DNA of 64,000 nucleotides from Escherichia coli. Its GTDB lineage: Bacteria > Pseudomonadota > Gammaproteobacteria > Enterobacterales > Enterobacteriaceae. Positions 4,694-19,652 of this stretch are shown here, in pieces. The position numbers and the translations under genes are program-made. Position 1 is the stretch's first letter. Each line of letters starts with the position of its first letter. Location: the NCBI RefSeq assembly GCF_030013595.1, contig NZ_CP122768.1; one strand, given 5' to 3'. Below the pieces are notes generated by a model. It was not told where the DNA came from. It saw nothing but the letters and a program-made list of their open reading frames with translations, and did not search any database.

Positions 4694-5290
4694 TTACACT
4701 TCCTCCGGATTAGCCAGATAACCAGTGGTATCGCCGGTCGGGCGGCTGTTGGCGTTAGGTTTGATAACGATATTGGGTTTTGTGAAATGCGCGCGCGGTA
4801 GTGGCGCGACGGCAGCCAGAGTGCCGTGCTTCTGGCGCAGCTCTTCAATTGGACCGAACTCAAGTGCACGCAGCGGGCAGGATTCGACACATATGGGTTG
4901 TTTCCCCTCGGCGACGCGCGAATAACAACCATCGCACTTCGTCATGTGTCCTTTTTCAGCATTGTACTGTGGCGCGCCGTACGGACAAGCCATGTGGCAG
5001 TAGCGGCAGCCGATACAAACATCTTCATCAACCACCACAAAGCCATCTTCACGCTTATGCATTGCGCCGCTGGGGCAGACTTTTGTACATGCGGGGTCAT
5101 CGCAATGGTTACAGGAGATGGAGAGATAATAAGCGAACACGTTCTGGTGCCAGACGCCGCCAGCATATTCATAAATACGGCGGAAACTGACTTCCGGGCC
5201 AAGATCTTTAAAATCTTTGCACGCCAGTTCGCAGGTTTTACAGCCAGTACAGCGGCTGGAATCGATAAAAAATCCATATTGTGTGGTCAT
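4694..5290 (-). CDS. ynfG: DmsB-type 4x[4Fe-4S] electron-transfer subunit YnfG (198 aa here)
   Basis: MTTQYGFFIDSSRCTGCKTCELACK plus further Cys clusters. Appears 7 codons shorter than the 205-aa K-12 protein as I remember it (see findings). Confidence 0.88.
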   Translation of the reverse strand: MTTQYGFFIDSSRCTGCKTCELACKDFKDLGPEVSFRRIYEYAGGVWHQNVFAYYLSISCNHCDDPACTKVCPSGAMHKREDGFVVVDEDVCIGCRYCHMACPYGAPQYNAEKGHMTKCDGCYSRVAEGKQPICVESCPLRALEFGPIEELRQKHGTLAAVAPLPRAHFTKPNIVIKPNANSRPTGDTTGYLANPEEV

Positions 5291-5300
5291 GGGCTACTCC

Positions 5301-7727
5301 TTAAACCTTTTCGATCTGGACAAGATTGCTGTGCGACGGGTTTCCCTTTGCCAGCGGTGAAGGGCGGTGAGAGGTCAGAATATTGATACTGCCGCCGTGA
5401 TCGACCCGGTCACCAAACATATCCGCTTTAAGCCACGCACCTTGCCCGATGGCGGTAACGCCAGGCAGAATACGCGGAGTCACTTTTGCGGCAATCAGCA
5501 TTTCTCCATTATTGTTAAATACCCGCACGGTATCGCCATGACGGATACCGCGTGCCTGAGCATCAATAGGGTTGATCCACACCTCTTGTGGGCAGGCCTG
5601 CTGTAACACATCAATATTGCCGTAGCTGGAGTGGGTACGCGCTTTGTAGTGGAAGCCCGTTAACTGCAGTGGATAGGTTTTCCGCAGGGGATCGTCCCAG
5701 CCATCAAAACCTGGGGTATACGCAGGAAGGGGATGAATAATTTCATCTTTTTTCAATTCCCAGGTATCCGCAATCGTCGCCAGTCGTTCAGAATAAATTT
5801 CGATTTTCCCCGAAGGTGTTTTCAACGGGTTTGCCTGTGGATCTTCACGGAATGCGCGGAAAGCGACGTAGTGTTCTTCCGGGCATTTTTTCTTAAAGAT
5901 CCCGGTCGTTTTCATCTCCTCGTAGTCGGGCATCTCAGGGTTACGTTCCTTCGTTTTCGCATGGAGATATTTGATCCATTCATGCTGACTGCGACCTTCA
6001 GTAAAGGTTTGATAAACGTCTGGTCCTAAGCGTTTGGCAACTTCACTCAGCATCCAGTAGATGGGTTTGCGTTCAAATTTTGCTGAGGTTGCGGGTTGGG
6101 CGAGGATCACATAGCCCATATTCCCGGCAGATTCGTGAGAGATAAGGTCTTCTTGCTCTGTTGGCATCAGGTCGGGCAACAGGATATCGCAATACTTAGC
6201 CGAGGCAGTCATGAAGTGGTCAATGCCAACAATCATCTCGCACTTGCTGTCATCCTGAAGCACCTCATGGGTGTGATTGATGTCGCCATGTTGATTGATC
6301 AATGTGTTACTGGCGTAGCACCATAAAAACTTGATGGGGACATCCAGTTTTTCTTTTCCACGAACACCATCACGGGTCGCGGTCATTTCCGTACCGTGGT
6401 CGATGGCATCTGTCCATGTAAAGACGGAAATCTGCGTTTTAACAGGATTCTCAAGCATCGGGAACCATTCTACCCCCAGATCCCAGCTACCTTCGCGTAC
6501 ACCTGAGTTGCCGCCGTTTATGCCGACGTTACCGGTGAGAACGGAAAGCATGGCAATAGCGCGGGACGTTTGTTCGCCGTTGGAGTGTCGTTGTGGCCCC
6601 CAACCCTGACAAATATAAGCAGGTTTTGCTGAACCGATCTCTCGTGCCAACTGGATAATTTTTTCTGCCGGGATGCTGGTGATTTTTGCTGCCCATTCCG
6701 GCGTTTTAGCTATGCCGTCAGGCCCTTCGCCCAGAATATAGGCTTTATAATGCGCGTTACGTGGTGCGTTGGCGGGCAGCGTTTTTTCATCGTAACCAAC
6801 ACAATATTTGTCGAGAAATGGCTGATCGACCATGTTTTCAGTAATCAGTACCCAGGCAATCGCACAGGCCAGTGCGCCATCGGTGCCTGGGCGAATTGGC
6901 AGCCATTCATCTTCACGCCCGGCAGCAGTGTCGTTATAACGTGGATCGATGACGATCATGCGTGCGTTTGAACGTTCTCGGGCTTGCTCGACGTAGTAAG
7001 TGACACCACCGCCGCTCATCCGGGTTTCTGCCGGGTTATTTCCGAACATAACGACCAGTTTCGTATTGGCTATATCATCCGGGCTGTTGCCATCATTGGC
7101 ACCGAACATATAACTCATTGCGGCACTGATTTGAGCGGTACTGTAGCTGCCATAGCGACTGAGAAAACCACCGCAAGAGTTCATCAGACGGTACGGGACG
7201 TTCGAGTTGGTGATGTTTCCGCCATCTACGCCTGTTCCGTACAGGACATGTACAGCCTCATTGCCGTAATCTTTAAGGATCCGCCGAAGATTATCACTGA
7301 TGGTATCCAGGGCTTCATCCCAACTTATCCGTTCAAATTTACCTTCACCGCGCTTGCCGACGCGCTTCATGGGATATTTCAACCTGTCAGGATGATTCAT
7401 CCGTCGGCGGATAGAGCGCCCGCGTAAACATGCCCGAACCTGATGATTACCGTAGACGTCGTCACCTGTCGTATCAGACTCCACCCAGTACACGGTGTCA
7501 TCTTTCACATGCAAACGTAACAGACAGCGGCTCCCGCAGTTAACGGTGCAGGAACTCCAGACCGCTTTCTCTTCTACCGGTGTCTCTGCCGCTCGGACCA
7601 TTTGGGAAAATGGCAGAGTGAAAGCACTGCTTGCCAGCGCAAGACTGCCAAGTGCGGAGGTTTTCATCAGACTTCTACGGCTGATTTCAGCCTTCATGAG
7701 CGCCTCTGTGGTATGGATTTTCATCAT
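5301..7727 (-). CDS. ynfF: Molybdopterin oxidoreductase catalytic subunit YnfF (DmsA paralogue, Tat-exported)
   Basis: 808-aa ORF. Twin-arginine signal SRRSLMKTSALGSLALA, N-terminal Cys cluster CTVNCGSRC, DmsA-like throughout. Confidence 0.92.
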   Translation of the reverse strand: MMKIHTTEALMKAEISRRSLMKTSALGSLALASSAFTLPFSQMVRAAETPVEEKAVWSSCTVNCGSRCLLRLHVKDDTVYWVESDTTGDDVYGNHQVRACLRGRSIRRRMNHPDRLKYPMKRVGKRGEGKFERISWDEALDTISDNLRRILKDYGNEAVHVLYGTGVDGGNITNSNVPYRLMNSCGGFLSRYGSYSTAQISAAMSYMFGANDGNSPDDIANTKLVVMFGNNPAETRMSGGGVTYYVEQARERSNARMIVIDPRYNDTAAGREDEWLPIRPGTDGALACAIAWVLITENMVDQPFLDKYCVGYDEKTLPANAPRNAHYKAYILGEGPDGIAKTPEWAAKITSIPAEKIIQLAREIGSAKPAYICQGWGPQRHSNGEQTSRAIAMLSVLTGNVGINGGNSGVREGSWDLGVEWFPMLENPVKTQISVFTWTDAIDHGTEMTATRDGVRGKEKLDVPIKFLWCYASNTLINQHGDINHTHEVLQDDSKCEMIVGIDHFMTASAKYCDILLPDLMPTEQEDLISHESAGNMGYVILAQPATSAKFERKPIYWMLSEVAKRLGPDVYQTFTEGRSQHEWIKYLHAKTKERNPEMPDYEEMKTTGIFKKKCPEEHYVAFRAFREDPQANPLKTPSGKIEIYSERLATIADTWELKKDEIIHPLPAYTPGFDGWDDPLRKTYPLQLTGFHYKARTHSSYGNIDVLQQACPQEVWINPIDAQARGIRHGDTVRVFNNNGEMLIAAKVTPRILPGVTAIGQGAWLKADMFGDRVDHGGSINILTSHRPSPLAKGNPSHSNLVQIEKV

Positions 7728-7784
7728 TACTCACTTATTGCTTTTCAAACAAAATGTCATGCCAGAATTTATGGTTGTAGTGGG

Positions 7785-8811
7785 TTATATTTTTTCGATC
7801 TCGACCAGATTAGTGTGCTGCGGGTTTCCCTTCGCCAGTGGTGAAGGGCGCAGAGTGGTTAGCGTATTCACACAGCCGCCATGGTCGATTTTATCGCCAG
7901 ACATATTGGCCTCGTGCCAGGCTCCCTGGCCCATAGCGCTAACCCCAGGGAGAATGCGTGGTGTTACTTTGGCTGGTAGCCGAACTTCGCCACGATGGTT
8001 AAACACCCGCACCATATCGCCGTTGGCAATCCCACGTTTCTGTGCATCTATAGGGTTGATCCACACCTCCTGACGGCAGGCTTCCTTCAGGACATCAATA
8101 TTGCCGTAGGTCGAGTGGGTACGGGATTTGTAATGGAAACCAAACAGTTGCAGTGGGAAGGTTCTACGTTCAGGGGAGTCCCAGCCTTCAAAGGTTGAGG
8201 CATAAACTGGCAGTGGGCTTATCACTTCATCTTTTTCCAGTTCCCAGGTACGGGCAATTTCCGCCAGCTTGCTGGAATAAATTTCAATCTTACCGGAAGG
8301 CGTTTTAAGTGGATTTGCCTCGGGGTCGTCACGAAATGCTTTGTAGGCGACAAAATGACCATTGGGATCTTTACGCTTATAGATACCCATTTTTTTCAGT
8401 TCGTCGTAAGACGGTAACGCCGGATCTTTGGCAAGCATTTTGGCGTACAGATGTTGTAACCATTGTTCCTGCGTGCGACCTTCTGTGAACTTTTGATAGA
8501 CGTCAGGTCCAAGACGTTTCGCGACTTCACTCAGGATCCAGTAAATCGGTTTGCGTTCGAATTTTTCGCTGGTGACTGGCTGAAGGAAAATGAGATATCC
8601 CATGTTACCTGCGTAGTCGTTAGGAATAATATCTTCCTGCTCAACGGTCATCAGGTCTGGCAGCAGAATGTCGGCATATTTTGCCGATGAGGTCATAAAG
8701 TTTTCGATGACCACAATCATTTCGCATTTCGATTCGTCCTGCAGAATTTCATGCGTTTTGTTGATGTCAGAATGCTGATTAACCAGGGTATTTCCCGCGT
8801 AGTTCCAGATG
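7785..8811 (-). pseudogene. ynfE: ynfE 3' fragment (codons after ...KFIWN), separated from its 5' part by the island
   Basis: The translation from NYAGNTLVNQHSDIN to the C-terminus EIEKI is YnfE-like. The N-terminal 49 aa of track ORF 7785..8951 are read-through into island DNA. Confidence 0.9.
8801..8811. repeat. Left copy of 11-bp direct repeat AGTTCCAGATG (att core / target duplication of the island)
   Basis: An identical 11-mer occurs at 18242..18252. Host ynfE sequence continues on the outer side of each copy. Confidence 0.85.
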
Positions 8812-8876
8812 GACTCCACTGTCAGACGGATGGACGGACTTGAAGTAGTTGACTCAACGCTACTTAAGGTCCTGAT

Positions 8877-10485
8877 ATGACTGACATTAACTATGATAAT
8901 ACTGTATATCCATCCAGCTCTTTCTCTGGGTCTCCCTATCTGTATGGGCAAGTCTACACCTCAAGTCCTGACACAAGGCTGACACAAATCAATCTACTCA
9001 GCGTAGCTAAGCCTCAGTTAGTCCGTAGAGCCAATGGTCGATATACTATCCGCTTCAGACTCAAGGGACAGACCACACCGTTTCTTTCAGTATCGACCCG
9101 AAGCACAGACAGGAGAGTAGCCACAATGCGTCAGAGAGAGCTTGCAGCCACAGCTAAGGCCTTCATGTTGGATAGGCCTGAAGTCTCACTACAGGAGCTT
9201 ACAGAGCATCTCCGGTCTATGGCTGAGCAGTTCCTGACAGACGCTAGTGACGATTACTGGAATGGACTTGAGGTCGCTACTTTGGTGGACGAGAAGTCCA
9301 ACCTGAAGGAGCTAGCCGCTACGCAAGCCTTGAGTCTGGACCAGCAGAAGGGCATAAGGTTAGCGCTTGAAGTCCTGACCGCAGCACAGCAGAGGGTAGA
9401 TACTGGTGATACGTCCAGTCTAATCAAGCTGATTGGTGGTGGCGTAAGCCAGCTTACTGATGGAGATGACAATAACCTTACTAATAACTCAACTATATGC
9501 GACTCTACGTTGATTCTGAGGAACGAGCAGGGGGTCAGCCCGCAAGTATTCACGAGAGAGCGCCAACCATCTGTAGTTTTTTCAAGCCTAGTGTCCTCAC
9601 TGCTGGCTGAGAAGGTCCAGACCCTGAAGTCCTCCAGCTACAAGGACCTGTCGTCCTCACTGAATACCGTCTCTCGGTTTCTGCCTGAAGATATGGACCT
9701 GATGTCCCGCTCTGAGTGGCTGGCAGTGAGGGACGCTATGCTGGCTGCTGAGGTGAGACCATCGACAATCAACAAGCTGCTGACCAAAGCGAAGATGTGT
9801 CTCGATTATGGCCTGATGAATGGGCAACTTGAGGGCCGCAACCCTATTGAACGGATGAAGCTGACCAAGGATACCGACTCCAAGCGCAGAGCGTTCACAG
9901 ACGAGGAGCTGGAGAGACTTCTGGTCCGTGTTGAGGCTGAGTATCAGTTCACACGACACACGGCTCACACGACCTCTGAGGCCCGTAGATGGGCGTCTCT
10001 GGTGTCTGTGGTCACTGGCGCGAGGTCTGCTGAGGTCTGCCACCTGACTAAACGTGACGTTGTAACCTTGGACAATGGACTGGTCTGTATCGACATCAAT
10101 GAAGATGGGGACGGGAAGTCTGTGAAGAACAAACATTCAGTCCGACTTGTGCCGTTAACCGATGGGGCCTGTGGTTTCAGCCTGAAGTCCTTCCTCAAAT
10201 GGGTAGACACTCAGCCTGCTGATGGTCCCCTCTTTGGTATGACTCCGAGTGCCTACTCTAGTTGGTTTAACTCTAGGGTCCTGACTGAGGCCCTAGGAGA
10301 CGCTGAGAACGTTTCTCCACAGTCTGAGACATTGGCTGGCGACCCGAATGAAAGAGCGTGGAGTCAATCTGGTGGACGCTCAAGGCATCTTAGGTCACAG
10401 CAGTCAGTCCATTACGTATGACCTGTACGGGAAAGGACACGCTGTTGGTAGGCTGGCTGAGGTGCTGAAGACAGCTTTACTTTAA
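8877..10485 (+). pseudogene. Tyrosine recombinase (integrase) interrupted by a frameshift; ~535 aa if repaired
   Basis: Frame 1 (8877..10421) carries VTGARSAEV (box I Arg) and KNKHSVRLVPL. The catalytic LHSLRHWLATRMKERGVNLVDAQGILGHSSQSITYDLYGKGH is in the +1 frame and ends at 10485. The shift must lie in 10297..10317, probably the TTT run at 10312-10314. Confidence 0.8.
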
Positions 10486-10581
10486 GTAGGAAGACCCAAG
10501 GTGGAGACCATATACGGCTTGATGGTTGAGACCTTGGGTCACTGAAGTCTGACTGAAGTTAGGGAGGGTGATAATAATCAT

Positions 10582-10604
10582 AATCCCTCCTGACTATAGG
10601 CCCA
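10582..10604 (+). promoter_or_regulatory. Phage single-subunit RNAP promoter look-alike AATCCCTCCTGACTATAGGCCCA
   Basis: A GACTATAGG core resembling the T7 CACTATAGG, directly after the hairpin GGAGGGTGAT..ATCATAATCCCTCC downstream of int. Confidence 0.35.
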
Positions 10605-10645
10605 CTGGTTCGCCTTCGGCTGTCCGACTCTAAGTCTGTCTGTGG

Positions 10646-10777
10646 TCTTATTTAAACTGGTTCCCTAACTCAGGTCCTCCAACTTGGTGTCTTATTTAAA
10701 CTGGTTCCCTAACTCAGGTCCTCCAACTTGGTGTCTTATTTAAACTGGTTCCCTAACTCAGGCCCCTCCAAATTTCG
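10646..10777. repeat. Three tandem 44-bp repeats (TCTTATTTAAACTGGTTCCCTAACTCAGGTCCTCCAACTTGGTG; third copy diverges at its 3' end)
   Basis: Units start at 10646, 10690 and 10734. The first two are identical by eye. Confidence 0.9.
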
Positions 10778-10795
10778 TTGTCTGTCAGCGACTTA

Positions 10796-10818
10796 AATAT
10801 CCCCTCACCTTAGAAGAG
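10796..10818 (+). promoter_or_regulatory. Phage-RNAP-type promoter look-alike ATATCCCCTCACCTTAGAAGAGT (type 1, copy 1)
   Basis: Shares ATAyCCCCTCACywTAG with 11426..11448. Predicted +1 at 10813, followed by GAAGAG as at the SP6 promoter start. Confidence 0.5.
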
Positions 10819-10832
10819 TTTAGGGTTCAGAC

Positions 10833-10855
10833 CCTTAACTATCACCTTAGGAGAG
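10833..10855 (+). promoter_or_regulatory. Phage-RNAP-type promoter look-alike CCTTAACTATCACCTTAGGAGAG (type 2, copy 1)
   Basis: Shares CCCTwAACTATCACywTAGGrGrGA with 11452..11474. Predicted +1 at 10850, 52 nt upstream of the ATG at 10902. Confidence 0.5.
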
Positions 10856-10901
10856 ACGGGCCGTCCTCCACCCAATCAAAACCTTAAGAGGAGGACCATA
10901 C

Positions 10902-11402
10902 ATGGCTATTAAAATTCAGTGCTACACCGAGTCCGACAATGCGGCTTTCTTCGGTGACGATTCCGACCTCCAGCACCAGCTACCAGCACCGACATATGAC
11001 GAACCTAAGGCCCGCACAGGTAAGCCTCCTGTGGTCATCGACAACCGGGCTGTCCGTGCGTGGCTGATTGAGACTGGGTGTCTCTCCTATACGCAGCTTG
11101 TTGAGGCGTACCCGTGGGCTGACGATGTGTTCACAGGACTCTCACGGGCTACCAGTGGCGCTGTCGGTGCTGGACTCCCGGTATCTAAGGCGTACCTGTT
11201 CTCTGCCTTATATGGCACCAACGACATCTTCTCCCGTAACACAGCCAAATCCTACGCTGACATCACTGGGCGTTCACCGTCTCCTCGCTACCTGCGCCAC
11301 GTCAATAGCGTGCTTCAGGCTACGGCTGTGAATCTGGCTAAGGTTCTGAAGGACCGAGGGGATTTCACATGGTGGGATTACAACGATCAGTGCCTGTCCT
11401 GA
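10902..11402 (+). CDS. Hypothetical 166-aa protein, first gene downstream of the tandem promoter-like pair
   Basis: ATG preceded by AAGAGGAGGA. No domain I can recognise. Confidence 0.6.
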   Translation: MAIKIQCYTESDNAAFFGDDSDLQHQLPAPTYDEPKARTGKPPVVIDNRAVRAWLIETGCLSYTQLVEAYPWADDVFTGLSRATSGAVGAGLPVSKAYLFSALYGTNDIFSRNTAKSYADITGRSPSPRYLRHVNSVLQATAVNLAKVLKDRGDFTWWDYNDQCLS

Positions 11403-11425
11403 GAGCCGCGCCAGCTCTGGGCTGG

Positions 11426-11448
11426 AATACCCCCTCACTATAGGGACA
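11426..11448 (+). promoter_or_regulatory. Phage-RNAP-type promoter look-alike AATACCCCCTCACTATAGGGACA (type 1, copy 2)
   Basis: By hand alignment, 18 of 23 positions equal the T3 consensus AATTAACCCTCACTAAAGGGAGA and 16 of 23 equal the T7 consensus TAATACGACTCACTATAGGGAGA. Confidence 0.6.
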
Positions 11449-11451
11449 CCC

Positions 11452-11474
11452 CCTAAACTATCACTATAGGGGGG
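11452..11474 (+). promoter_or_regulatory. Phage-RNAP-type promoter look-alike CCTAAACTATCACTATAGGGGGG (type 2, copy 2)
   Basis: CACTATAGGG core. Its +1 lies 26 bp downstream of that of the previous site, forming a tandem pair like 10796/10833. Confidence 0.55.
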
Positions 11475-11712
11475 ACCAACCTTGCCTCTGCTTCTGATGC
11501 GTCAGAACACGCGAGGTCCTCCCGACATTAAGTATTCTCCTAAGTAATCAAGGCCCGTGACCGCCTCTGACAGACCTCCTGTATCGACCTCCAGCTCGTT
11601 AGCGTTCTTTAGTCGTCTCGGTTAGTAGGTAACCGGCTCATTTAAACCGTCTGGTCTGTTTCCTCCGGCTCTACAAAAATAATGTCCATCATTTTTTAAT
11701 GGACACTATCGT

Positions 11713-12360
11713 ATGAAACACCGGACCTGGATCACTGAAGCTTTACGTCTTCACTTTGAAGAACATTTACCCCGGGTTGTGGCCGGGCGTCGCCTGGGTG
11801 TACCAAAATCAACAGTTTGTAGTATGTTCGTGCGCTTTCGGAGAGCTGGCCTTTCGTGGCCTTTGCCCGCAGGCATGTCGGAGCAGGAACTTGATGCCTG
11901 CCTTTACGGACAATTTTCCACGGTACCAGTCGTACGTCCTGAAAGCACCGTTATATCCGAAGCCCCCGTGGTAAAAAAACGTCCCCGGCGGCCCAACTTC
12001 CCTTATGAGTTTAAAATCGCCTTAGTGGAGCAGTCACTGCAGCCCGGAGCCTGTGTGGCGCAGATCGCCCGGGAAAACGGAATCAACGATAACCTGCTCT
12101 TCAACTGGCGCCATCAATACCGGAAAGGTGGCCTGCTGCCTTCCGGAAAAAATATGCCGGCACTGCTTCCCGTGACGTTAACGCCGGAGCCGGATAATAA
12201 AATCCCGGCCCCCGCACAGGAACCAGAGCAGATAAATACACCGTCCGACAGTCTGTGTTGTGAGCTGGTTCTGCCGGCCGGAACTCTCAGGCTTAAAGGT
12301 AAACTGACGCCGGCGTTATTACAGACACTTATCCGCGAAATAAAAGGGAGCAGCCACTGA
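11713..12360 (+). CDS. tnpA: IS66-family accessory protein TnpA (HTH)
   Basis: 215-aa ORF, first of three. Its stop overlaps the tnpB start (ATGA at 12357-12362). Confidence 0.8.
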   Translation: MKHRTWITEALRLHFEEHLPRVVAGRRLGVPKSTVCSMFVRFRRAGLSWPLPAGMSEQELDACLYGQFSTVPVVRPESTVISEAPVVKKRPRRPNFPYEFKIALVEQSLQPGACVAQIARENGINDNLLFNWRHQYRKGGLLPSGKNMPALLPVTLTPEPDNKIPAPAQEPEQINTPSDSLCCELVLPAGTLRLKGKLTPALLQTLIREIKGSSH

Positions 12361-12707
12361 TGATATCTCTCCCTGCAGGTTCGCGTATCTGGCTGGTTGC
12401 AGGTATCACCGATATGCGAAATGGCTTTAACGGCCTGGCATCAAAAGTTCAGAACGTCCTGAAGGATGACCCGTTCTCCGGACACCTGTTCATCTTCCGC
12501 GGACGCCGGGGTGACCAGATAAAAGTGTTGTGGGCTGACAGTGACGGACTGTGCCTCTTCACCAAACGCCTGGAGCGGGGCCGCTTCGTCTGGCCAGTCA
12601 CCCGTGACGGCAAGGTGCACCTTACTCCGGCTCAGTTATCCATGCTTCTTGAAGGTATCAACTGGAAGCACCCGAAACGAACGGAACGCGCTGGAATCCG
12701 CATATAA
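12360..12707 (+). CDS. tnpB: IS66-family TnpB (Orf2)
   Basis: 115 aa, MISLPAGSRIWLVAGITDMRNGFNGLA..., typical IS66 Orf2. Confidence 0.88.
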   Translation: MISLPAGSRIWLVAGITDMRNGFNGLASKVQNVLKDDPFSGHLFIFRGRRGDQIKVLWADSDGLCLFTKRLERGRFVWPVTRDGKVHLTPAQLSMLLEGINWKHPKRTERAGIRI

Positions 12708-12726
12708 CCCGTTGTAAAGTGAGGAT

Positions 12727-14298
12727 ATGGACACCTCACTTGCTCATGAGAACGCCCGCCTGCGGGCACTGTTGCAGACGCAACAGGACACCATCCGCCA
12801 GATGGCTGAATACAACCGCCTGCTCTCACAGCGGGTGGCGGCTTATGCTTCCGAAATCAACCGGCTGAAGGCGCTGGTTGCGAAACTGCAACGTATGCAG
12901 TTCGGTAAAAGCTCAGAAAAACTTCGTGCAAAAACCGAACGGCAGATACAGGAAGCACAGGAGCGAATCAGCGCACTTCAGGAAGAAATGGCGGAAACGC
13001 TGGGTGAGCAATATGACCCGGTACTGCCATCCGCCCTGCGCCAGTCTTCAGCCCGTAAACCGTTACCGGCCTCACTTCCCCGTGAAACCCGGGTTATCCG
13101 GCCGGAAGAGGAATGCTGTCCTGCCTGTGGTGGTGAACTCAGTTCTCTGGGATGTGATGTGTCAGAGCAACTGGAGCTTATCAGCAGCGCCTTTAAGGTT
13201 ATCGAAACACAACGTCCGAAACAGGCCTGTTGCCGGTGCGACCATATCGTACAGGCACCAGTACCTTCAAAACCCATTGCACGCAGTTATGCCGGAGCGG
13301 GGCTTCTGGCCCATGTTGTCACCGGGAAATATGCAGACCATCTGCCGTTATACCGCCAGTCAGAAATATACCGTCGTCAGGGAGTGGAGCTGAGCCGTGC
13401 CACACTGGGGCGCTGGACAGGTGCTGTTGCTGAACTGCTGGAGCCGCTGTATGACGTCCTGCGCCAGTATGTGCTGATGCCCGGTAAAGTCCATGCTGAT
13501 GATATCCCCGTCCCGGTCCAGGAGCCGGGCAGCGGTAAAACCCGGACAGCCCGGCTGTGGGTCTACGTCCGTGATGACCGTAACGCCGGTTCACAGATGC
13601 CCCCGGCGGTCTGGTTCGCGTACAGTCCGGACCGGAAAGGTATCCATCCACAAAATCACCTGGCCGGTTACAGCGGTGTGCTTCAGGCCGATGCTTACGG
13701 TGGTTACCGGGCGTTATACGAATCCGGCAGAATAACGGAAGCCGCGTGTATGGCTCATGCCCGGAGAAAAATCCACGATGTGCATGCAAGAGCGCCCACC
13801 TACATCACCACGGAAGCCCTGCAGCGTATCGGTGAACTGTATGCCATCGAGGCAGAGGTCCGGGGCTGTTCAGCAGAACAGCGTCTGGCGGCAAGAAAAG
13901 CCAGAGCCGCGCCACTGATGCAGTCACTGTATGACTGGATACAGCAACAGATGAAAACACTGTCGCGTCACTCAGATACGGCAAAAGCGTTCGCATACCT
14001 GCTGAAACAGTGGGATGCACTGAACGTGTACTGCAGTAATGGCTGGGTGGAAATCGACAACAACATCGCAGAGAACGCCTTACGGGGAGTGGCCGTAGGC
14101 CGGAAAAACTGGATGTTCGCGGGTTCCGACAGCGGTGGTGAACATGCGGCGGTGTTGTACTCGCTGATCGGCACATGCCGTCTGAACAATGTGGAGCCAG
14201 AAAAGTGGCTGCGTTACGTCATTGAACATATCCAGGACTGGCCGGCAAACCGGGTACGCGATCTGTTGCCCTGGAAAGTTGATCTGAGCTCTCAGTAA
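12727..14298 (+). CDS. tnpC: IS66-family DDE transposase TnpC
   Basis: 523 aa with N-terminal leucine-zipper-like region, CxxC zinc motif ([12 protein letters not shown]) and DDE core, typical of IS66 transposases. Confidence 0.9.
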
Positions 14299-14582
14299 AT
14301 ATCAATACGGTTCTGACGAGTCGCTTACGTTAGTAGCTCGTCTACTCACTACATTGGCTTAAGTCTATCACCGCTCACCATCTGGAGTCCTTACAGCTCG
14401 TCCTGACATGCGGTCTCACCTTATATGCACATGGAGAACATGGCCACTCCAGACCAACACTAATCAACATTAACCCTATTCACTTTCGTTAAGCATTTTT
14501 TGGTGGGTCCGTTTGGATGCATTGAATAGGTGCGGACTCCACGTGGAGACAGAAAGTGCTTTACTAAAGGAGCATCCTTTAT

Positions 14583-14972
14583 ATGACTATTAAATCCATC
14601 GTTATCAACGGTAAGACCATCCTGTCTACACCTAACGCCATCAATGAGGGTGTCTGGTTCGACATGCTTGAGGTCCATCAAGCTGCTGGCTTGCCTGCTA
14701 ACAAGACGTTCTCACAGTGGCGCAGCCGACAGTCTCGTGCATTAGAAGAGGCTGGAGAGGTGTCGTTTGACAGTGTACAGAAGACCCTGTGTGGCAGCTT
14801 TGTGGCAGTGCTGGCCTACCTTATGTGGGCGGACCTTACTCTCTGGCTGGCGGTGGTTCGTTACGTTGCGTCTGAGACTATCGGCGTCCTGCCTGACCGC
14901 TTCAAGTCTATCGACGGTGATAACCCCGAGTTAGAAATGTCAGAGGATAACAGCGAGTGGGAGGACTTCTAA
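14583..14972 (+). CDS. KilA-N-like domain protein (129 aa) with acidic C-terminal tail ending ...SEDNSEWEDF
   Basis: SD TAAAGGAG. The N-terminus is paralogous to the next ORF (both have GLPA[NS]K..S[QE]W). See finding on the tail. Confidence 0.6.
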   Translation: MTIKSIVINGKTILSTPNAINEGVWFDMLEVHQAAGLPANKTFSQWRSRQSRALEEAGEVSFDSVQKTLCGSFVAVLAYLMWADLTLWLAVVRYVASETIGVLPDRFKSIDGDNPELEMSEDNSEWEDF

Positions 14973-14973
14973 G

Positions 14974-15714
14974 ATGACCATGAGCCAGCTTGAAGCATTA
15001 CCTATCGTCATCGAGGGTCATTCATTCATCTGCAACGACCAGCGCATGTGGAACCTGAACGAGATTCACCGAGTGTTAGGTCTTCCAGCAAGCAAGATGC
15101 CGTCTGAGTGGAATAACAAGATTCGCACACAACTTGACCGCTCCGGAAATTTCCGGACCGTGAATGGTGACGGCGGTGGTACATGGGCGACCGAGGCTGG
15201 GACCGTGGCTTATGCTATGTGGGTCTCTACAGATTTCTACCTGATGGTCATCAATGCTTTCATCTTTATGCGTAACGACGCAATCGTCCGAGAGCGTGTA
15301 GCGGTCAAACAGGCTGACGAGGCTAACGCTAACCTCTCCATCGCAGCACCTAAGGCAGACATCTTTGACGGTCGTCTGACCAATGGTGGCTCTGTTCCGT
15401 GGAACTGGGCGTGTAAATCTTTGGGTCTTGCCCCGATGAAACTGAAAGAGGGCTTGAAGCGCTCCGGTAAGTTCGTCCAGAAGTGGAACCCTGACAGTTA
15501 CGCCGACGAGCTTCGACCTCAGGAGAAGGCGTTCAGTATTGGACTATTCGTCACTAAGTCAGTCATGGGTAAAGACACATGGCAGGTGACAGCTAAAGGC
15601 TACGCATGGATGCAGGGGAACGCCCAGAAGTGGAGAGAGCTAATAGCTGATGGTGACCGCTTAAAGGCTGCTGAGCGTCGAGCACAGAAGCGTCTTAACC
15701 GTGGAGGTAAGTAG
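14974..15714 (+). CDS. KilA-N N-terminal / ANT-like C-terminal (antirepressor-type) DNA-binding protein, 246 aa
   Basis: N-terminal pattern IEGHSF..MWNLNEIHRVLGLPASK..GGGTWATEAGTVAYAMWVS fits KilA-N. The C-terminal LGLAPMKLKEGLKRSGKF...QVTAKGYAWM fits the ANT C-terminal pattern as I remember it. Starts 1 nt after the previous stop. Confidence 0.6.
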   Translation: MTMSQLEALPIVIEGHSFICNDQRMWNLNEIHRVLGLPASKMPSEWNNKIRTQLDRSGNFRTVNGDGGGTWATEAGTVAYAMWVSTDFYLMVINAFIFMRNDAIVRERVAVKQADEANANLSIAAPKADIFDGRLTNGGSVPWNWACKSLGLAPMKLKEGLKRSGKFVQKWNPDSYADELRPQEKAFSIGLFVTKSVMGKDTWQVTAKGYAWMQGNAQKWRELIADGDRLKAAERRAQKRLNRGGK

Positions 15715-15716
15715 TC

Positions 15717-15941
15717 ATGGCTATGATTGACCCTCGTACACCTATCGGCAAAGCGACCCTTCGTTACCGTGGTCTGCCTACACGTCATCTGCTGTCCCTG
15801 CTGAGACTTGGAGTCGAAGACCCCGAACGCCCGTACTACAGTCGAGACGAGCTAATAGCTATGTTGGTGGACCGTGATTTAGACAATCAGTTACGCCGAG
15901 CCTTTGCGAAGTCTAGCGCAGCTAGGGAACTGGAGTCCTGA
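15717..15941 (+). CDS. Hypothetical 74-aa protein
   Basis: ATG 2 nt after the previous stop, SD GGAGGTAAG. No recognisable domain. Confidence 0.5.
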   Translation: MAMIDPRTPIGKATLRYRGLPTRHLLSLLRLGVEDPERPYYSRDELIAMLVDRDLDNQLRRAFAKSSAARELES

Positions 15942-16146
15942 ACCTTATGGGGCAGAAAAACCGCCGCATAAACCTATCGTCTGCTGACCGAAGTTTCGAC
16001 GCATTGAGCCAGACGGAAAAGTTTTCCTGCTGGTAAACCACCTTAATTTAAACACCTTTTGAGAATGACCGATGCGGGGAGACCCGTAGGCATAACTGTG
16101 TCTGCGATACCGATAGTTCTCACCTTCTCAATAGGAGTACTACCTT

Positions 16147-16638
16147 ATGTTATTCAACAACAACGACTGGAAACTATCAGTCACCGACATCAATCCCTAT
16201 GAAAATACTGTGAGTCTGGACGGTCAGTCCTATCCGCTGTCTCTGGCGATTAAGACCCTGATTCCGGGCTACCTGTCAGGCTTACCGTCCACCAGCCGCG
16301 AGGCGATGGAGTTACTGGAAGCTCTGGCTGAAGCTGGCGTGTCCATTGGCAACTTCTTCAGTAATGACCTGATGACCGCCTATGGTCGCCGCCAGCAGAA
16401 CAAGCGAGCCGAAGCTGAGCGTATTGCTAAAGAGCAGCGCATTCAGGCTGAGCGTATGCGTGAAGAGAACATGACTGATGCAGAGTGGCAGAAAGAGCTA
16501 CAGCGCCGTGAACAGGTCAAAGCTGAACGCCGGACCTATGGTGAGCACCTCCGCAGTGCTACCCATTCCGCTGGGCGCTCCCGTGCTTCTATGGTCGCTG
16601 ACATTGAGTCCACGGACAACTGGATGGACAGCCTCTAA
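16147..16638 (+). CDS. Scaffold-like coiled-coil protein (163 aa)
   Basis: SD AGGAG. The charged heptad-like stretch RRQQNKRAEAERIAKEQRIQAERMREENMTDAEWQKELQRREQVKAERR sits immediately upstream of the capsid-like gene. Function is inferred from position and composition only. Confidence 0.4.
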   Translation: MLFNNNDWKLSVTDINPYENTVSLDGQSYPLSLAIKTLIPGYLSGLPSTSREAMELLEALAEAGVSIGNFFSNDLMTAYGRRQQNKRAEAERIAKEQRIQAERMREENMTDAEWQKELQRREQVKAERRTYGEHLRSATHSAGRSRASMVADIESTDNWMDSL

Positions 16639-16713
16639 GACACAGACACACAAGTGGTCCTGACCTGATGTCGGGACCCACAGTATCCAAACTAATTTAG
16701 GAGATTGATTATT

Positions 16714-17700
16714 ATGACGATTAAAGACGCTTTCCAGTTCGGCATTGAGCCAGTACGTATCAGCGACACCGACAACATTCAGATTAACGAAGGTTTGCCA
16801 ACTAACGCAGACCCGCAGGTCTATGCCCTCCAGTTAGCTAAGACGGTTAAGGCTATGCTGAACGGTGTACTTAAAGACGCTCAAGAGAACATCCCGTTCC
16901 CTGTAGAAGTCCTGCCGACCCGCAATAGCCTGCCTACTCCAATCATTGCTCACACTCTGGCTGATCGCTCTGTGGTCGTTCCTGTCCGTGGTGGTAAGCG
17001 ACCTGAAGTCGTGACCGTTCCGTCTGGACAAGAAATCGTGGTCGAACCAATCGAGCAGGCTATTCTCATCTCTGAGCAGACCAAGCTCTGGGACGCCAAG
17101 TCATCCACCGGATTCACTCAGGGCACACTTCAGCAGGACGCTATGAACATCTGTGAGAATGTGGTCCGTACCATCAACGCTCGCATGGTCGACGTTCTGG
17201 AGTCCTCCAAACTGTTGAAGACCGTAGAGCTGCCAGTCCTGACTGGAAGCCTGACCACTAAGGCAGACGCTATCATGGACGCTCTGTTTGAGAACACCGA
17301 GTCCTCTTTCGGCTCTGAAGTGTCTGATTACGGCATCATCGCCCATGAGTCCCAACTGAAAGCGCTGTCCCGTCTGGCAGCTAAACAGGGCTTCTCTGGT
17401 GGAGACGCTATCGTGGATATGCTGGGTACCGACATCGCCTATTACAACGGTGAAGACAAGGGTGTATTCATGCTGGCTAAACGCTTCACGGCCCTGAGCT
17501 TCGGCTGCTTCCGTCACGACGGTGAGAATATTACGGTCGTCCTTTCACGTGATGGCGACTCTCAGTCCCACGACTTGGAAATCCTCGGTAAAGTGTTCGT
17601 TGTCGCTGAAGCTGCTACGACCATCAAGATGGGCACTGGCTCAGCTACTGCCGTCCTGCCTGTAGTCAAACGCCTGAAGTTCACCAAGACCGAAGCGTAA
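16714..17700 (+). CDS. Putative HK97-fold major capsid protein (328 aa)
   Basis: ATG at 16714 after TAGGAG. Size and the C-terminal pattern (GIIAHESQLKAL...MLGTDIAYYNGEDKGVFMLAKRFTALSF...ITVVLSRDGDSQSHDLEILGKVFVVAEAA) resemble HK97-type coat proteins. No obvious similarity to T7 gp10 by eye. Confidence 0.45.
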   Translation: MTIKDAFQFGIEPVRISDTDNIQINEGLPTNADPQVYALQLAKTVKAMLNGVLKDAQENIPFPVEVLPTRNSLPTPIIAHTLADRSVVVPVRGGKRPEVVTVPSGQEIVVEPIEQAILISEQTKLWDAKSSTGFTQGTLQQDAMNICENVVRTINARMVDVLESSKLLKTVELPVLTGSLTTKADAIMDALFENTESSFGSEVSDYGIIAHESQLKALSRLAAKQGFSGGDAIVDMLGTDIAYYNGEDKGVFMLAKRFTALSFGCFRHDGENITVVLSRDGDSQSHDLEILGKVFVVAEAATTIKMGTGSATAVLPVVKRLKFTKTEA

Positions 17701-17844
17701 GACCAATGGGTAAGAGGTAAGTCTGGACTGAATATCAGCAGGACTTCAGGTGGTGGCCTGTCACTGTGATTAACTAACTACGGTCTGGACCAATGGTCTG
17801 GGCCTTATTACTGGTATGGTAGTATACAGGCGAAGGAGGACCCA

Positions 17845-18000
17845 ATGTCTATGACTTCCGCAGACCTAAGGTCCCTCCTGACTCTGGTCTATAAACTCGT
17901 GTTCCTCTCTGTGGGTCTCTACATGGTTCTCTCTGGTCGACTCGGTGTGGATGTGTTCGACACTCTGTCTAAGGCTGTGGGTGGACTTCTAGGTCCTTAG
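17845..18000 (+). CDS. 51-aa hydrophobic peptide (one or two TM segments)
   Basis: Not in the ORF track (<60 aa). ATG at 17845 preceded by GAAGGAGGA. MSMTSADLRSLLTLVYKLVFLSVGLYMVLSGRLGVDVFDTLSKAVGGLLGP. Confidence 0.45.
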   Translation: MSMTSADLRSLLTLVYKLVFLSVGLYMVLSGRLGVDVFDTLSKAVGGLLGP

Positions 18001-18241
18001 GTTTGGACTCACAGTGGGACCGATGATTTCTGACAGAAAAATGTGAATGACCATCTAATACATTAAGCCAGCAGACTTCCCCCCATAGTCCCGCCTCAAG
18101 TCCAGACCGAGGCCACCGGGGGTCCTGACCAGCCGTCTAGACATCCCGTCTAATGACACAAGTCTGGCACAAAGCCTGACACAAAGTCCTTGACTCAATG
18201 CAGGACCTCAGGCCTACTAAGGGTCCGCTTCAAGTCCTTGA

Positions 18242-18252
18242 AGTTCCAGATG
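18242..18252. repeat. Right copy of 11-bp direct repeat AGTTCCAGATG
   Basis: Identical to 8801..8811. Confidence 0.85.
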
Positions 18253-19652
18253 AACTTAATGGGCACATCCAGTTTATCTTTGCCGCGGACGCCGTCGCGG
18301 ATTGCCGTCATTTGCGGGCCATGATCGATAGCATCCGTCCAGCTGAAGCAGGAGATTGACGTTTTGACCGGATTATCCAGCACCGGTAGGCGTTCTATGG
18401 TAATGGTATAGGTCGATTCACGCGCGCCACTATTCCCGCCGCTGATGCCGACATTGCCCGTCAAAATAGGCAACATAGCAATAGCGCGTGCGGTCAGCTC
18501 ACCGTTTGCCTGGCGTTGCGGCCCCCAGCCCTGGCAGATATAAGCGGGTTTTGCTGTGCCAATTTCACGCGCCAGTTTGATGATACGGTCCACCGGGATA
18601 CCGGTAATTTGCGAAGCCCACTGCGGCGTTTTCGCTGTTTTATCGTCACCTTCACCAAGAATATAGGCTTTATAGTGACCATTTTTTGGTGCATCTGCGG
18701 GTAAGGTTTTTTCGTCATAGCCGACGCAGTATTTATCAAGAAAAGGTTGATCAACGAGATTTTCGTTAATCAATACCCAGGCAATACCCGCAACCAGCGC
18801 GGCATCGGTGCCCGGGCGAATAGGAAGCCATTCGTCTTCACGACCGGCAGCCGTATCGGTATATCGCGGATCGATAACAATCATTTTTGCGTTCGATTTC
18901 TCGCGCGCTTTTTCAAGAAGATAAGTGATGCCACCACCGCTCATGCGGGTTTCTGCCGGGTTGTTACCAAACATCACGACCAGCTTGCTGTTTTCAATAT
19001 CCGTGGTGCTGTTGCCATCATTACTGCCGTAGGTGTAGGGCATGGCACAGGAAATTTGCGCGGTGCTGTAGGAGCCATACTGGTTGAGTGAGCCGCCGTA
19101 GCAGTTCATCAGGCGTTTGACCGCCGAGGCGGATGGCGAAGAGCGGGTCATATTGCCGCCAACAATCCCCGAAGAGTACTGAATATATACAGCCTCATTG
19201 TCATATTGTTCGACGGTTTTTTTCAGGCTACTGGCGATAGTATCCAGGGCTTCATCCCAGCTAATCCGTTCGAATTTGCCTTCGCCGCGTTTGCCCACGC
19301 GTTTCATTGGGTAATTCAAGCGGTCGGGATGATTAATACGCCGACGGATGGAGCGACCGCGCAAACAGGCGCGTACTTGATGATTGCCATACTCATCGCT
19401 GCCGGTGTTGTCAGTTTCCACCCAGGTCACTTCATTATCTTTAACATGCAGACGAAGTGCACAGCGGCTACCACAGTTGACGGAACAGGCACCCCAGACC
19501 ACTTTCTCGCTGGCCTGTTGTACTGCTGCCGCTGCACTGCGCAGGGTGAACGGTAAAGAAAAACCGCCTGCAGCCAGCGCCAGAGAACCTATCGCGGTAG
19601 ATTTAACGAGTGTTCTGCGGCTGATGCCCACCATTTGTTCATTTTTGGACAT
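18242..19652 (-). pseudogene. ynfE: ynfE 5' fragment (Tat signal through ...KLDVPIKFIWN)
   Basis: MSKNEQMVGISRRTLVKSTAIGSLALAAGG..., DmsA/YnfF paralogue. Track ORF 18195..19652 ends with 16 island-encoded residues. Confidence 0.9.

Follow-up and report, generated by a model that had tools for sequence, protein, structure and literature searches.

Five families of phage satellites have been described, namely the P4-like elements, the PICI, the cf-PICI, the PICMI and the PLE. The locus considered here is an insertion of 9.45 kb that splits the ynfE gene within a 64,000-nucleotide stretch of the Escherichia coli contig NZ_CP122768.1; the whole stretch is called the window throughout. The inserted island belongs to a family that combines promoters resembling those of T7-family phages with a gene for a predicted HK97-fold capsid-type protein (orf331), and this family is probably a previously undescribed satellite of virulent T7-family phages, mainly of the genus Kayfunavirus.

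The defining gene set of the P4-like satellites comprises int, AlpA, a primase (alpha), psu, delta, sid and epsilon-type functions according to the SatelliteFinder model, and that of the PICI consists of int, an AlpA, Stl or MerR regulator, a primase-replicase and capsid-morphogenesis genes and/or terS (PMC10085698); the island has only int of either set. The cf-PICI, for instance EcCI2, extend over about 15 kb and have 11 core components, with an AlpA/MerR regulator, a primase-replicase, a portal, a head-tail adaptor and connector, a protease, TerS, TerL and an HNH protein in the core (PMC10085698). The modelled fold of orf331 suggests that the island likewise owns an HK97-type capsid gene, whereas its size of 6.7 kb, its content of about eight genes and the detection of int and the capsid-fold gene as the only core components set it apart from the cf-PICI. 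Moreover, the known helpers of cf-PICI are temperate, and activation through promoters of a helper polymerase is no part of these elements. The PICMI of the Vibrionaceae possess a mandatory integrase, AlpA and a primase (DUF3987/DUF5906), lie adjacent to fis, have no capsid gene and are packaged as concatemers in helper capsids (PMC10803314). They resemble the island in being very small integrative elements (about 6 kb) with a virulent helper, a minimal gene set and defence cargo (PMC10803314), and in both systems the last few bases of int are shared with another gene, namely iolg in the PICMI and the defence gene RAZR in the branch of the islands located at tRNA-Gly. In contrast to the PICMI, the islands have neither AlpA nor a primase, reside in ynfE or at tRNA-Gly(CCC) of Enterobacterales hosts and carry a predicted capsid-fold protein as well as phage-polymerase promoters.

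The PLE of Vibrio cholerae, with ICP1 as helper, and the island would both parasitise a strictly virulent phage, defend the host population and stay silent until infection. However, PLE measure about 18 kb, are characterised by RepA, NixI and TcaP among other genes, and have a replication initiator, a nuclease and a capsid-remodelling scaffold of their own but no capsid protein, ICP1 uses the host RNA polymerase, and the host and helper groups differ from those of the island; no PLE-related families were detected in the island by Pfam and PHROG scans. The satellite-encoded HK97-fold protein Ccm of SaPIbov5, which redirects capsid size, is a sequence homologue of the helper capsid protein, unlike orf331, which shows no profile similarity to gp10 of the helper, and SaPIs are further equipped with Stl, pri-rep and packaging functions (terS or cos). 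DNA bearing T7 promoters replicates from polymerase-primed origins, and plasmids with the right-end and concatemer-junction region of T7 are packaged into transducing particles. The island resembles such plasmids in its tandem phage promoters and its right-end hairpin, but the plasmids are engineered constructs with the junction of T7, whereas the island is a natural element in which no sequence similar to a terminal repeat or junction was found.

An earlier note on the window, made from the sequence alone, had stated that the gene set matches none of the known satellite families, and this statement was borne out by the comparison with the defining genes of all five. The target gene ynfE is also listed in the TIGER catalogue, among the genes whose integrity is controlled by an integrative element (PMC7192596); this entry maps the integration only, and covers neither gene content nor phage-type promoters nor a helper (PMC7192596). 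Integration into ynfE (PMC7192596) is already known and RAZR is well studied, and neither paper describes the element. Full-text literature searches yielded no satellite or other dedicated parasite of T7-like or Kayfunavirus phages and no promoter mimicry as a trigger, which is not proof of a wider absence. The novelty consists in a family, either of phage satellites or of defence islands, with a new activation logic.

The island family and its phage-type promoters

A version of the island lacking the IS66 insertion sequence (IS) occupies ynfE in many E. coli genomes, and the module formed by orf163 and orf331 was found in 309 of the 5,426 complete E. coli genomes (about 6%) that constituted the set for all occurrence counts in this species. 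The copies of the module were always chromosomal, occurred once or twice per genome at several chromosomal positions and showed 76-100% identity. Relatives of the island were detected in Shigella, Leclercia, Buttiauxella, Citrobacter and Enterobacter, and the orf163 family extends to Salmonella, Yersinia, Photorhabdus, Serratia, Hafnia and Kluyvera. A second integrase type (28% identical) sets the same late genes beside tRNA-Gly(CCC); both types are present within one Shigella genome, and three copies of the capsid gene within one Citrobacter genome. The 76 loci compared, from several genera, share a uniform size of 6-7 kb and a uniform gene order: int comes first and is followed by a single variable cargo gene, a tandem promoter pair, small open reading frames (ORFs), a second promoter pair, an Ant-type protein (KilA-N plus ANT or Rha plus ANT), orf74, orf163, orf331, an optional 79-aa plus 52-aa ORF and orf51. 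Small integrase islands in which an ORF of about 160 aa precedes the capsid gene also harbour capsid homologues with identities as low as 41% and 32%. The ratios of nonsynonymous to synonymous substitutions (dN/dS) were 0.09-0.19 for orf331, 0.22-0.40 for orf163 and 0.17-0.53 for orf74. The values for orf331 and orf163, along with the uniform size and order across genera, indicate that the island is not decaying.

No genes for conjugation, mobilisation or replication were found in the island variants by Pfam and PHROG scans. The presence or absence of the island is polymorphic in genomes and metagenome contigs, and this polymorphism, the two integration modules and the multiple copies per genome argue for mobility. 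About 14 island-length metagenome contigs start and end some 45 bp inside ynfE without terminal overlap; their interpretation as excised circles was rejected in favour of assembly bubbles caused by the presence/absence polymorphism. Contigs broken about 45 bp outside both att cores (L162, L164, L170, L174, L180, L182 and L183; L-numbers label the relative loci, contigs and phage genomes compared with the window) indicate that single gut or food samples contain a mixture of island-bearing and island-free cells. Contigs of about 6.4-7.8 kb with orf331 homologues in the Logan and ENA data were likewise considered as excised or packaged forms and turned out to be chromosomal fragments.

The 16-mer AACTATCACTATAGGG of the type-B promoter sites of the island occurs in IMG/VR in about 25 contigs of 39-40 kb, each with several matches on the same strand, and these contigs represent Kayfunavirus, that is K1F-like coliphages. 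The type-A string CCCTCACTATAGGG matches the Cronobacter phages GW1/Dev2 and the Citrobacter phages SH4/SH5, which belong to Kayfunavirus as well. A listing of promoters over whole genomes revealed two specificity classes within Kayfunavirus, with the consensus (A/C)TTAAACCCTCACTATAGG for class A (phage GW1) and (A/C)CTAAACTATCACTATAGG for class B (phages vB_EcoP_F and SFPH2). Position weight matrices were built for type A from the GW1 promoters and for type B from those of vB_EcoP_F and SFPH2, and the 17 annotated T7 promoters provided a control matrix. With the Kayfunavirus A or B matrix the island sites scored 22-36 bits and the promoters of the phages themselves 29-38 bits, whereas with the T7 matrix the island sites reached only -13 to +12 bits as compared to 25-40 bits for T7's own promoters. 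The island sites conform to the 23-nt consensus of T7-type promoters (-17 to +6), with its core from -8 to +1 and its specificity bases from -12 to -9, in the A and B versions of Kayfunavirus, and exact matches between island and phage promoters extend over 19-25 nt.

The survey of the 76 loci, at a cut-off of at least 20 bits, extended over 430 kb within islands and 481 kb of flanking sequence. All 148 sites were located inside islands, on the strand of the capsid gene and 1.9-5.9 kb upstream of it, and not a single one in the 481 kb of true flanks. When every site was given to whichever matrix scores higher, 27 of 50 islands contained class B only, 20 both classes, one class A only and two none. 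The tandem pairs were arranged in the order A then B in 22 of 23 cases, with a spacing of mostly 26-28 bp. The strict strand, position and pairing along with the lack of flank matches exclude chance for this pattern. The ynfE-type copies of E. coli contain mostly class B, which is the class of the coliphages and Shigella phages, and the copies of Citrobacter, Leclercia and Buttiauxella contain A+B pairs; this distribution fits the idea that stacked classes widen the response to Kayfunavirus. Sites similar to sigma-70 promoters were no commoner in the island than in shuffled sequence.

In the window, the earlier note had counted five promoter look-alikes, all of which are present; those at 10832, 11425 and 11451 are strong, and those at 10795 and 10581 are weak (8-10 bits). 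The variant TCACCTTAGG of the first pair occurs also as a genuine promoter variant in vB_EcoP_F and SFPH2, and the second pair is conserved in relatives. The core motif CTCACTATAGG alone is not enriched, since with two mismatches 11 occurrences were found in the whole window and 10 expected; all matches with at most one mismatch lie within the island, and the signal requires this stringency or the full-length matrices.

Promoters of another phage group were found in the divergent island L219 (capsid protein 41% identical, ynfE-like site), which contains, with features at 4370-4430 and 7441-7575, a 23/23 copy of the late promoter AAGGAAGGTACACTATAGGGAGA of Citrobacter phage CR8, a member of the genus Caroctavirus. 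A promoter-like site of another type, TTAATGAGACCCACACTATAGAGACCA, precedes it by 33 nt. The islands copy promoters of T7-family phages near-exactly, with lineages tuned to different phages (Kayfunavirus, Caroctavirus). The distant island L221 (capsid protein 32% identical), which consists of int, a KilA-N protein, a 155-aa ORF and the capsid gene, carries promoter-like TAAACCCCGACTATAGAGAG sites, with features at 7750-7810, 11465-11490 and 12015-12060; a search with its promoter type AACCCCGACTATAGAG returned scattered single matches only and no helper phage. Small environmental IMG/VR contigs with CCCCTCACTATAGGGACAG sites were rejected as island relatives, as they encode no homologues of the island proteins. 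Three of them, L122 (IMGVR_UViG_3300006565_000265, 6760 bp), L135 and L148, measure 6.4-6.8 kb with up to three CCCCTCACTATAGGGACAG sites on the same strand and could be pieces of further T7-like phages or a different small element.

Taken together, expression of the late island genes is very probably driven by a T7-family phage polymerase. The wiring to a T7-type RNA polymerase proposed in the earlier note therefore held in the form of near-exact Kayfunavirus promoters conserved across islands, but not for T7 itself. The predicted helpers are Kayfunavirus phages (K1F/vB_EcoP_F/SFPH2 and GW1/Dev2/SH4 types) and related Studiervirinae. T3 polymerase might also read the type-A sites, because the bases at -12 to -10 are identical.

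Island proteins and a hairpin shared with T7-like phages

Structure prediction and fold search confirmed the HK97-like capsid fold proposed earlier for orf331. An alignment of 12 close sequences gave an unusable AlphaFold2 model (pLDDT 47), and an alignment of 40 sequences, collected by an exhaustive HMMER search, was needed for a usable one (pLDDT 85.9, pTM 0.80). The predicted fold displays the HK97 topology with N-arm, E-loop hairpin, spine helix/P-domain and A-domain. Only HK97-fold capsid proteins and encapsulins were recovered as its structural neighbours, with 207 Foldseek matches in the PDB at E<=1e-3, and a fold search against BFVD yielded capsid proteins. At the sequence level, profile searches of the PDB, Pfam and PHROGs returned nothing, tblastn found no match in 50,697 phage genomes, and no sequence or profile similarity to gp10 of the helper was detected. 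The HMMER search revealed distant relatives, one of which contains an Ig-like Big_2 domain as present in many virion proteins.

Encapsulin-like or decoy roles of orf331 are also possible. An unrelated integrative element with an encapsulin-like nanocompartment, with promoter strings that are coincidental or used by the host, is extremely unlikely as an explanation of the whole island. It is at odds with the 23/23 and 19-25-nt exact promoter matches, with their strict placement in 50 islands and their lack in the flanks, and with the frequency of sigma-70-like sites, which did not exceed that of shuffled sequence; in addition, a gp7.3 homologue and a helper hairpin, both described below, tie the element to T7-like phages.

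The gene directly upstream of the capsid gene, orf163, is retained even beside capsid homologues of 24-41% identity. Its product belongs to a DUF6971-like family and gave a profile match to the uncharacterised PDB entry 5eur (E 2e-12), the structure of which could help to assign its function. Profile-profile comparison showed no similarity to gp9 of the helper, and matches to T7 gp14 were non-significant. The label of a scaffold-like protein given previously was not verified by these searches; its position and its charged helical C-terminus are consistent with a scaffolding role.

Of the two KilA-N paralogues described earlier, the 246-aa protein was confirmed by Pfam matches to KilA-N and ANT, and it matches also PHROG families of anti-repressors and regulators, whereas for the 129-aa protein the similarity consists in 28% identity to the former. 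Other variants have Rha+ANT proteins in the Ant-type slot, and the distant island L221 has a KilA-N protein there. The cargo gene orf166 had no match in Pfam, PHROG or PADLOC, and L001 and L002 contain a different module in place of its segment. Pfam and PHROG scans also upheld the previously noted lack of genes for RNA polymerase, DNA polymerase or primase, terminase, portal, tail and lysis, and the polymerases left no trace in any of the 76 loci.

A further connection to the phages is a hairpin that occurs as a single copy in each ynfE-type island, always directly after int. Its segment at 10563-10590 is identical in 27 of 28 positions to vB_EcoP_F and in 26 of 26 to other Kayfunavirus contigs. 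Each of these phage genomes has one copy, always flanked by gene 19.5 on one side and on the other by the phiOR-equivalent promoter that follows the large terminase gene. As the folding z-scores (-1.2 to -1.4) are unremarkable, the case for the hairpin relies on sequence identity and position. Short-word blastn of the island against three helper genomes detected promoters and hairpin as the only shared sequences. An 18-mer common to L014 and phages was also considered and judged a likely chance match.

Several further observations concern this hairpin type. The distant island L221 also carries a helper-type hairpin (GAGGGTGATTGTAATCA…CCCTCA) near its right end. A hairpin of the GGTGAT…ATCACC type upstream of gene 19.5 and downstream of phiOR is conserved across the Studiervirinae including T7 (L223, about 39325-39352), T3 (L225, about 2540-2565) and CR8 (L235, about 38975-39005), and is located at 6965-6992 in the Kayfunavirus contig L156; the reference records of T7 and T3 carry no annotation for it.

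In several variants other than the window copy, the capsid gene is followed by the 79-aa ORF, whose product is about 40% identical over the full length to Kayfunavirus gp7.3 (hhalign 98.8%). According to the T7 record, gp7.3 is part of the virion and required for adsorption and the assembly of the tail. This was the only match when island proteins, with orf74, orf163, orf331, orf51 and orf52 among them, were compared by profile-profile alignment with all 47 protein families of vB_EcoP_F.

T7-like genomes likewise have T7-type promoters, a capsid-fold gene, gp7.3 and the right-end hairpin, and these features would also be expected in the decayed remnant of a temperate, integrase-bearing T7-like prophage that has lost its polymerases, portal, terminase and tail; the window copy, with an IS and a frameshift, is visibly decaying. 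Such an origin is nevertheless very unlikely, since the 76 loci keep the same size and gene order in several genera without a trace of RNA polymerase, DNA polymerase, portal, terminase or tail genes, and the core genes are under purifying selection. Moreover, orf331 and orf163 have no profile similarity to gp10 and gp9 of T7-like phages, orf331 has no counterpart among the phage genomes searched, and the promoter pairs combine two different polymerase specificities, a combination superfluous for any single phage.

The cargo gene of the tRNA-Gly(CCC) branch is a full-length match to PD-T7-4/RAZR (E 1e-102), and another variant contains an HNH endonuclease in the cargo slot. RAZR, formerly PD-T7-4, is an abortive-infection RNase activated by the portal of T7 and T3 (PMC13017515). 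The discoverers of PD-T7-4 remarked that the gene 'often overlaps an integrase gene' (PMC9519451), and the overlap of RAZR with int in the islands identifies the mobile element behind this remark. The gene is located at 6833-7492 in L014, 6725-7384 in L011 and 6786-7442 in L008, and shares 8 nt with the end of int.

These cargo genes agree with the view that the islands are defence islands triggered by phage infection and not transduced. The promoters would then serve as an infection sensor, and the HK97-fold protein as a decoy, the Ant protein, the gp7.3 mimic and the membrane peptide would poison capsid or tail assembly of the helper or kill the cell by abortive infection, whereas the island itself would spread by other means. 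This explanation shares most of the evidence with that of a satellite and overlaps it, as satellites commonly interfere with their helpers. It is favoured by promoters that make expression depend on infection, by RAZR in one branch and the HNH endonuclease in another, by the possibility that the gp7.3 homologue is a dominant-negative inhibitor of tail assembly, and by the failure to find packaging and replication genes or excised forms. However, the core proteins matched no PADLOC defence model, PD-T7-4 in the other branch being the only hit; an integrase with likely arm-type sites, two targets, several copies per genome and a spread over multiple genera point to frequent horizontal movement without conjugative functions; the ORF of about 160 aa before the capsid gene, under strong purifying selection, represents the classic arrangement of capsid assembly; and a copy of the right-end hairpin of the helper has no obvious role as toxin or decoy. 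A purely defensive island, the main alternative, is in our view unlikely, though far from negligible.

Proposed satellite life cycle and its implications

The islands combine helper-type promoters, a gp7.3 homologue, a helper hairpin and a capsid-fold gene with the absence of polymerases, portal, terminase and tail genes, as is typical of satellites in general. The life cycle suggested by this composition would include promoter use by the phage polymerase, excision, replication, capsid formation, packaging and transfer. Before infection, expression would be limited to the integrase and perhaps the cargo gene beside it, and the late genes would be silent behind promoters that the host RNA polymerase should ignore. 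Upon infection by a matching phage, its single-subunit RNA polymerase would recognise the tandem promoters, one for each Kayfunavirus specificity class, so that either kind of helper would work, and would transcribe the genes for the Ant-type protein, orf74, orf163, orf331 and, in some variants, the gp7.3-like protein. The primary replication origin of T7 consists of the tandem promoters phi1.1A and phi1.1B, which are annotated as promoters in the T7 record. Transcription from the tandem promoters of the island may similarly prime replication by the helper replisome, and promoter pairs acting as helper-dependent origins would explain the lack of a replication gene. The orf331 protein might build small capsids on portal and tail parts of the helper, or co-assemble with the helper capsid and redirect it in the manner of Ccm; the hairpin common to the right end of the helper may act as a packaging or processing signal, and the gp7.3 homologue points to a role at the step of tail attachment. 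The cargo beside int, such as RAZR/PD-T7-4 in one branch, would defend the host against the same group of phages.

We consider it an evenly balanced proposition that the islands unite helper sensing by tandem promoters, a helper-fired origin and an own HK97-fold protein with its partner in about eight genes, which would make them the most minimal capsid-encoding satellite. With the same even balance, they would at once be the natural vehicle of the anti-T7 defence gene RAZR.

A number of observations weigh against the satellite reading. The scans with Pfam and PHROG detected no AlpA/Xis, primase or replicase, terminase, portal, tail or lysis genes in any variant, and the lack of a relation of orf331 and orf163 to gp10 and gp9 renders an interaction with helper parts speculative. 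No segment resembling the terminal repeat of the helper was found in the island by short-word blastn against the three helper genomes, which is a difficulty for its cutting and packaging by a T7-type terminase. Downstream of the promoter pairs there is no obvious AT-rich stretch of the kind present at the primary origin of T7. T7-like phages degrade host DNA quickly, and an integrated element must escape this. Furthermore, no excised, circular or particle-derived forms were found in the assemblies searched, the IMG/VR matches to the island come from isolate genomes, and the many copies disrupted by IS elements, the window copy included, indicate that expression could be costly rather than useful.

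T7-like phages are the best-studied virulent phages and leading therapy candidates against E. coli K1, Shigella, Citrobacter and Cronobacter. Should the proposed cycle apply, the islands would exemplify a novel means of virus-specific detection by a mobile element, namely mimicry of the promoters of the viral RNA polymerase, and the stacking of promoters of different specificity would be a simple route to a wider helper range. They would also define a minimal capsid-encoding satellite and a new lineage of capsid proteins with a partner protein, and explain the genomic home of RAZR/PD-T7-4. The cargo slot, with orf166, genes of 122, 139 and 148 aa and the HNH gene, could then be mined for new anti-T7 defences, and the presence of the module in about 6% of the complete E. 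coli genomes may affect the outcome of therapy with K1F-like phages and its gene-transfer side effects.

Insertion in ynfE and features of the window copy

The island is bracketed by the 11-bp direct repeat AGTTCCAGATG, of which exactly two copies exist in the window, with 0.02 expected. When one copy and the interior were deleted in silico, the minus-strand fragments fused to an uninterrupted ynfE of 808 codons, as had been derived by hand in the earlier note. The reconstructed 319-bp junction is intact in 5,113 of the 5,426 complete E. coli genomes, in some of them with 100% identity and annotated as ynfE; accordingly, the empty site is the norm and the state of the window an insertion. The features of the locus are compiled in the table.

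Features of the ynfE island and its borders, with positions counted from the first nucleotide of the window
Feature	Coordinates	Strand	Evidence or remark
ynfE 3' part (selenate/dimethyl sulphoxide (DMSO)-type reductase A subunit)	7785..8811	-	ORF list; joined to 18242-19652 = 808 codons; partial reductase in annotation of relatives
attL core AGTTCCAGATG	8801..8811	.	two exact copies in the window; same core borders island-length metagenome contigs
Tyrosine integrase, inactivated	8877..10485	+	frames 8877-10421 and 10348-10485; phrog_1 integrase, E 6e-24
TGACACAA repeats by attL	8969..8988	+	likely integrase arm-type sites; read in sequence
Hairpin GGAGGGTGATAATAATCATAATCCCTCC then TGACTATAGG	10563..10600	+	cis element common to island and helper phages
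Tandem repeat, 44 bp x 2.9 copies	10645..10771	+	TRF, 97% matches
Degenerate type-A-like site	10795	+	about 8 bits; first tandem pair 10795..10855
Type-B site, TCACCTTAGG variant	10832	+	23.1 bits; first tandem pair 10795..10855
orf166, variable cargo gene	10902..11402	+	between two promoter pairs; only close homologues exist
Type-A site GAATACCCCCTCACTATAGGGACA	11425	+	27.2 bits; second tandem pair 11425..11474
Type-B site CCCTAAACTATCACTATAGGGGGG	11451	+	28.2 bits; second tandem pair, 26 bp from type A
IS66-family insertion (tnpA, tnpB, transposase)	11629..14328	+	2,700 bp; between promoters and late genes
orf129	14583..14972	+	28% identity to KilA-N N-terminus of 246-aa protein, E 3e-6; no Pfam match
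Ant-type DNA-binding protein, 246 aa	14974..15714	+	Pfam KilA-N E 1.7e-5 (N-terminus), ANT/KilAC E 2e-4 (C-terminus)
orf74, conserved core gene	15717..15941	+	all variants, 58-100% identity; no family match
orf163, conserved core gene directly upstream of capsid gene	16147..16638	+	candidate scaffold/assembly factor
orf331, predicted HK97-fold capsid-type protein	16705..17700	+	structure prediction and fold search
Stem-loop after capsid gene	17782..17804	+	terminator-like scan, 10 pairs, 6 G-C; possible terminator/processing site
orf51, small hydrophobic peptide	17845..18000	+	92-98% identity among ynfE-type islands; no family match
12-bp repeats TGACACAAAGCC x 2.8 near attR	18154..18186	+	TRF; likely integrase arm-type sites
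attR core AGTTCCAGATG	18242..18252	.	exact repeat of attL core
ynfE 5' part	18242..19652	-	ORF list and reconstruction
attP junction string of island (predicted), …GTCCTTGAAGTTCCAGATGGACTCCACTG…			

The ORFs of the island are all on the plus strand and preceded by strong Shine-Dalgarno sequences, in agreement with the previous description. This holds also for the IS66-family copy with its 8-bp target duplication GTTAGTAG (11621-11628 and 14329-14336), after subtraction of which the native island comprises 6,744 bp, and for the frameshift in int, which was traced to a 2-bp deletion at about position 10318 by alignment with the intact 528-aa integrase of L002. The motif LGHSSQSITYDLY with the catalytic Tyr falls in the second integrase frame and is cut off from the rest of the protein. 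The IS66 insertion and the frameshift leave the window copy doubly disabled, as a dead example of a live family; E. coli PO06101 (NZ_CM129865), by comparison, contains an island with an intact int of 528 aa and free of IS. The IS66 copy belongs to the ISCro1-like/ISCro1 family according to the annotation of the relative L003, and most relatives are without it. IS elements (IS66/ISCro1, IS100, ISEc12) split many copies between the integrase and promoters on one side and the late genes on the other, for instance at 11629-14328 in the window, 4750-7365 in L003 and 5009-7321 in L219, and in L006 the insertion is located inside int; a target preference or selection against the expression of late genes could account for such disruption.

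In addition to the repeats by attL, 12-bp repeats related to TGACACAA occur near attR and by the right end of the distant island L221. The segment 10686-11450, which includes repeats and orf166, represents a module swap relative to most E. coli copies. The array of three 44-bp repeats reported earlier was recovered with 2.9 copies, and at the same position between int and cargo gene L001 contains an array of 83 bp x 2.5 (4902-5101); the islands of L001 and the window are otherwise 98-99% identical, and the arrays travel with the swapped cargo module. Within int, the string ATCTGTAGTTTTTT (9569-9590) resembles, without matching, the class II pause/termination signal of T7 (ATCTGTT followed by a T-run) and is kept in L002 although it is located within the coding sequence. 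The paralogue ynfF directly downstream (5301-7727 of the window) is intact with 808 aa, so that the loss of ynfE through the insertion may be buffered.

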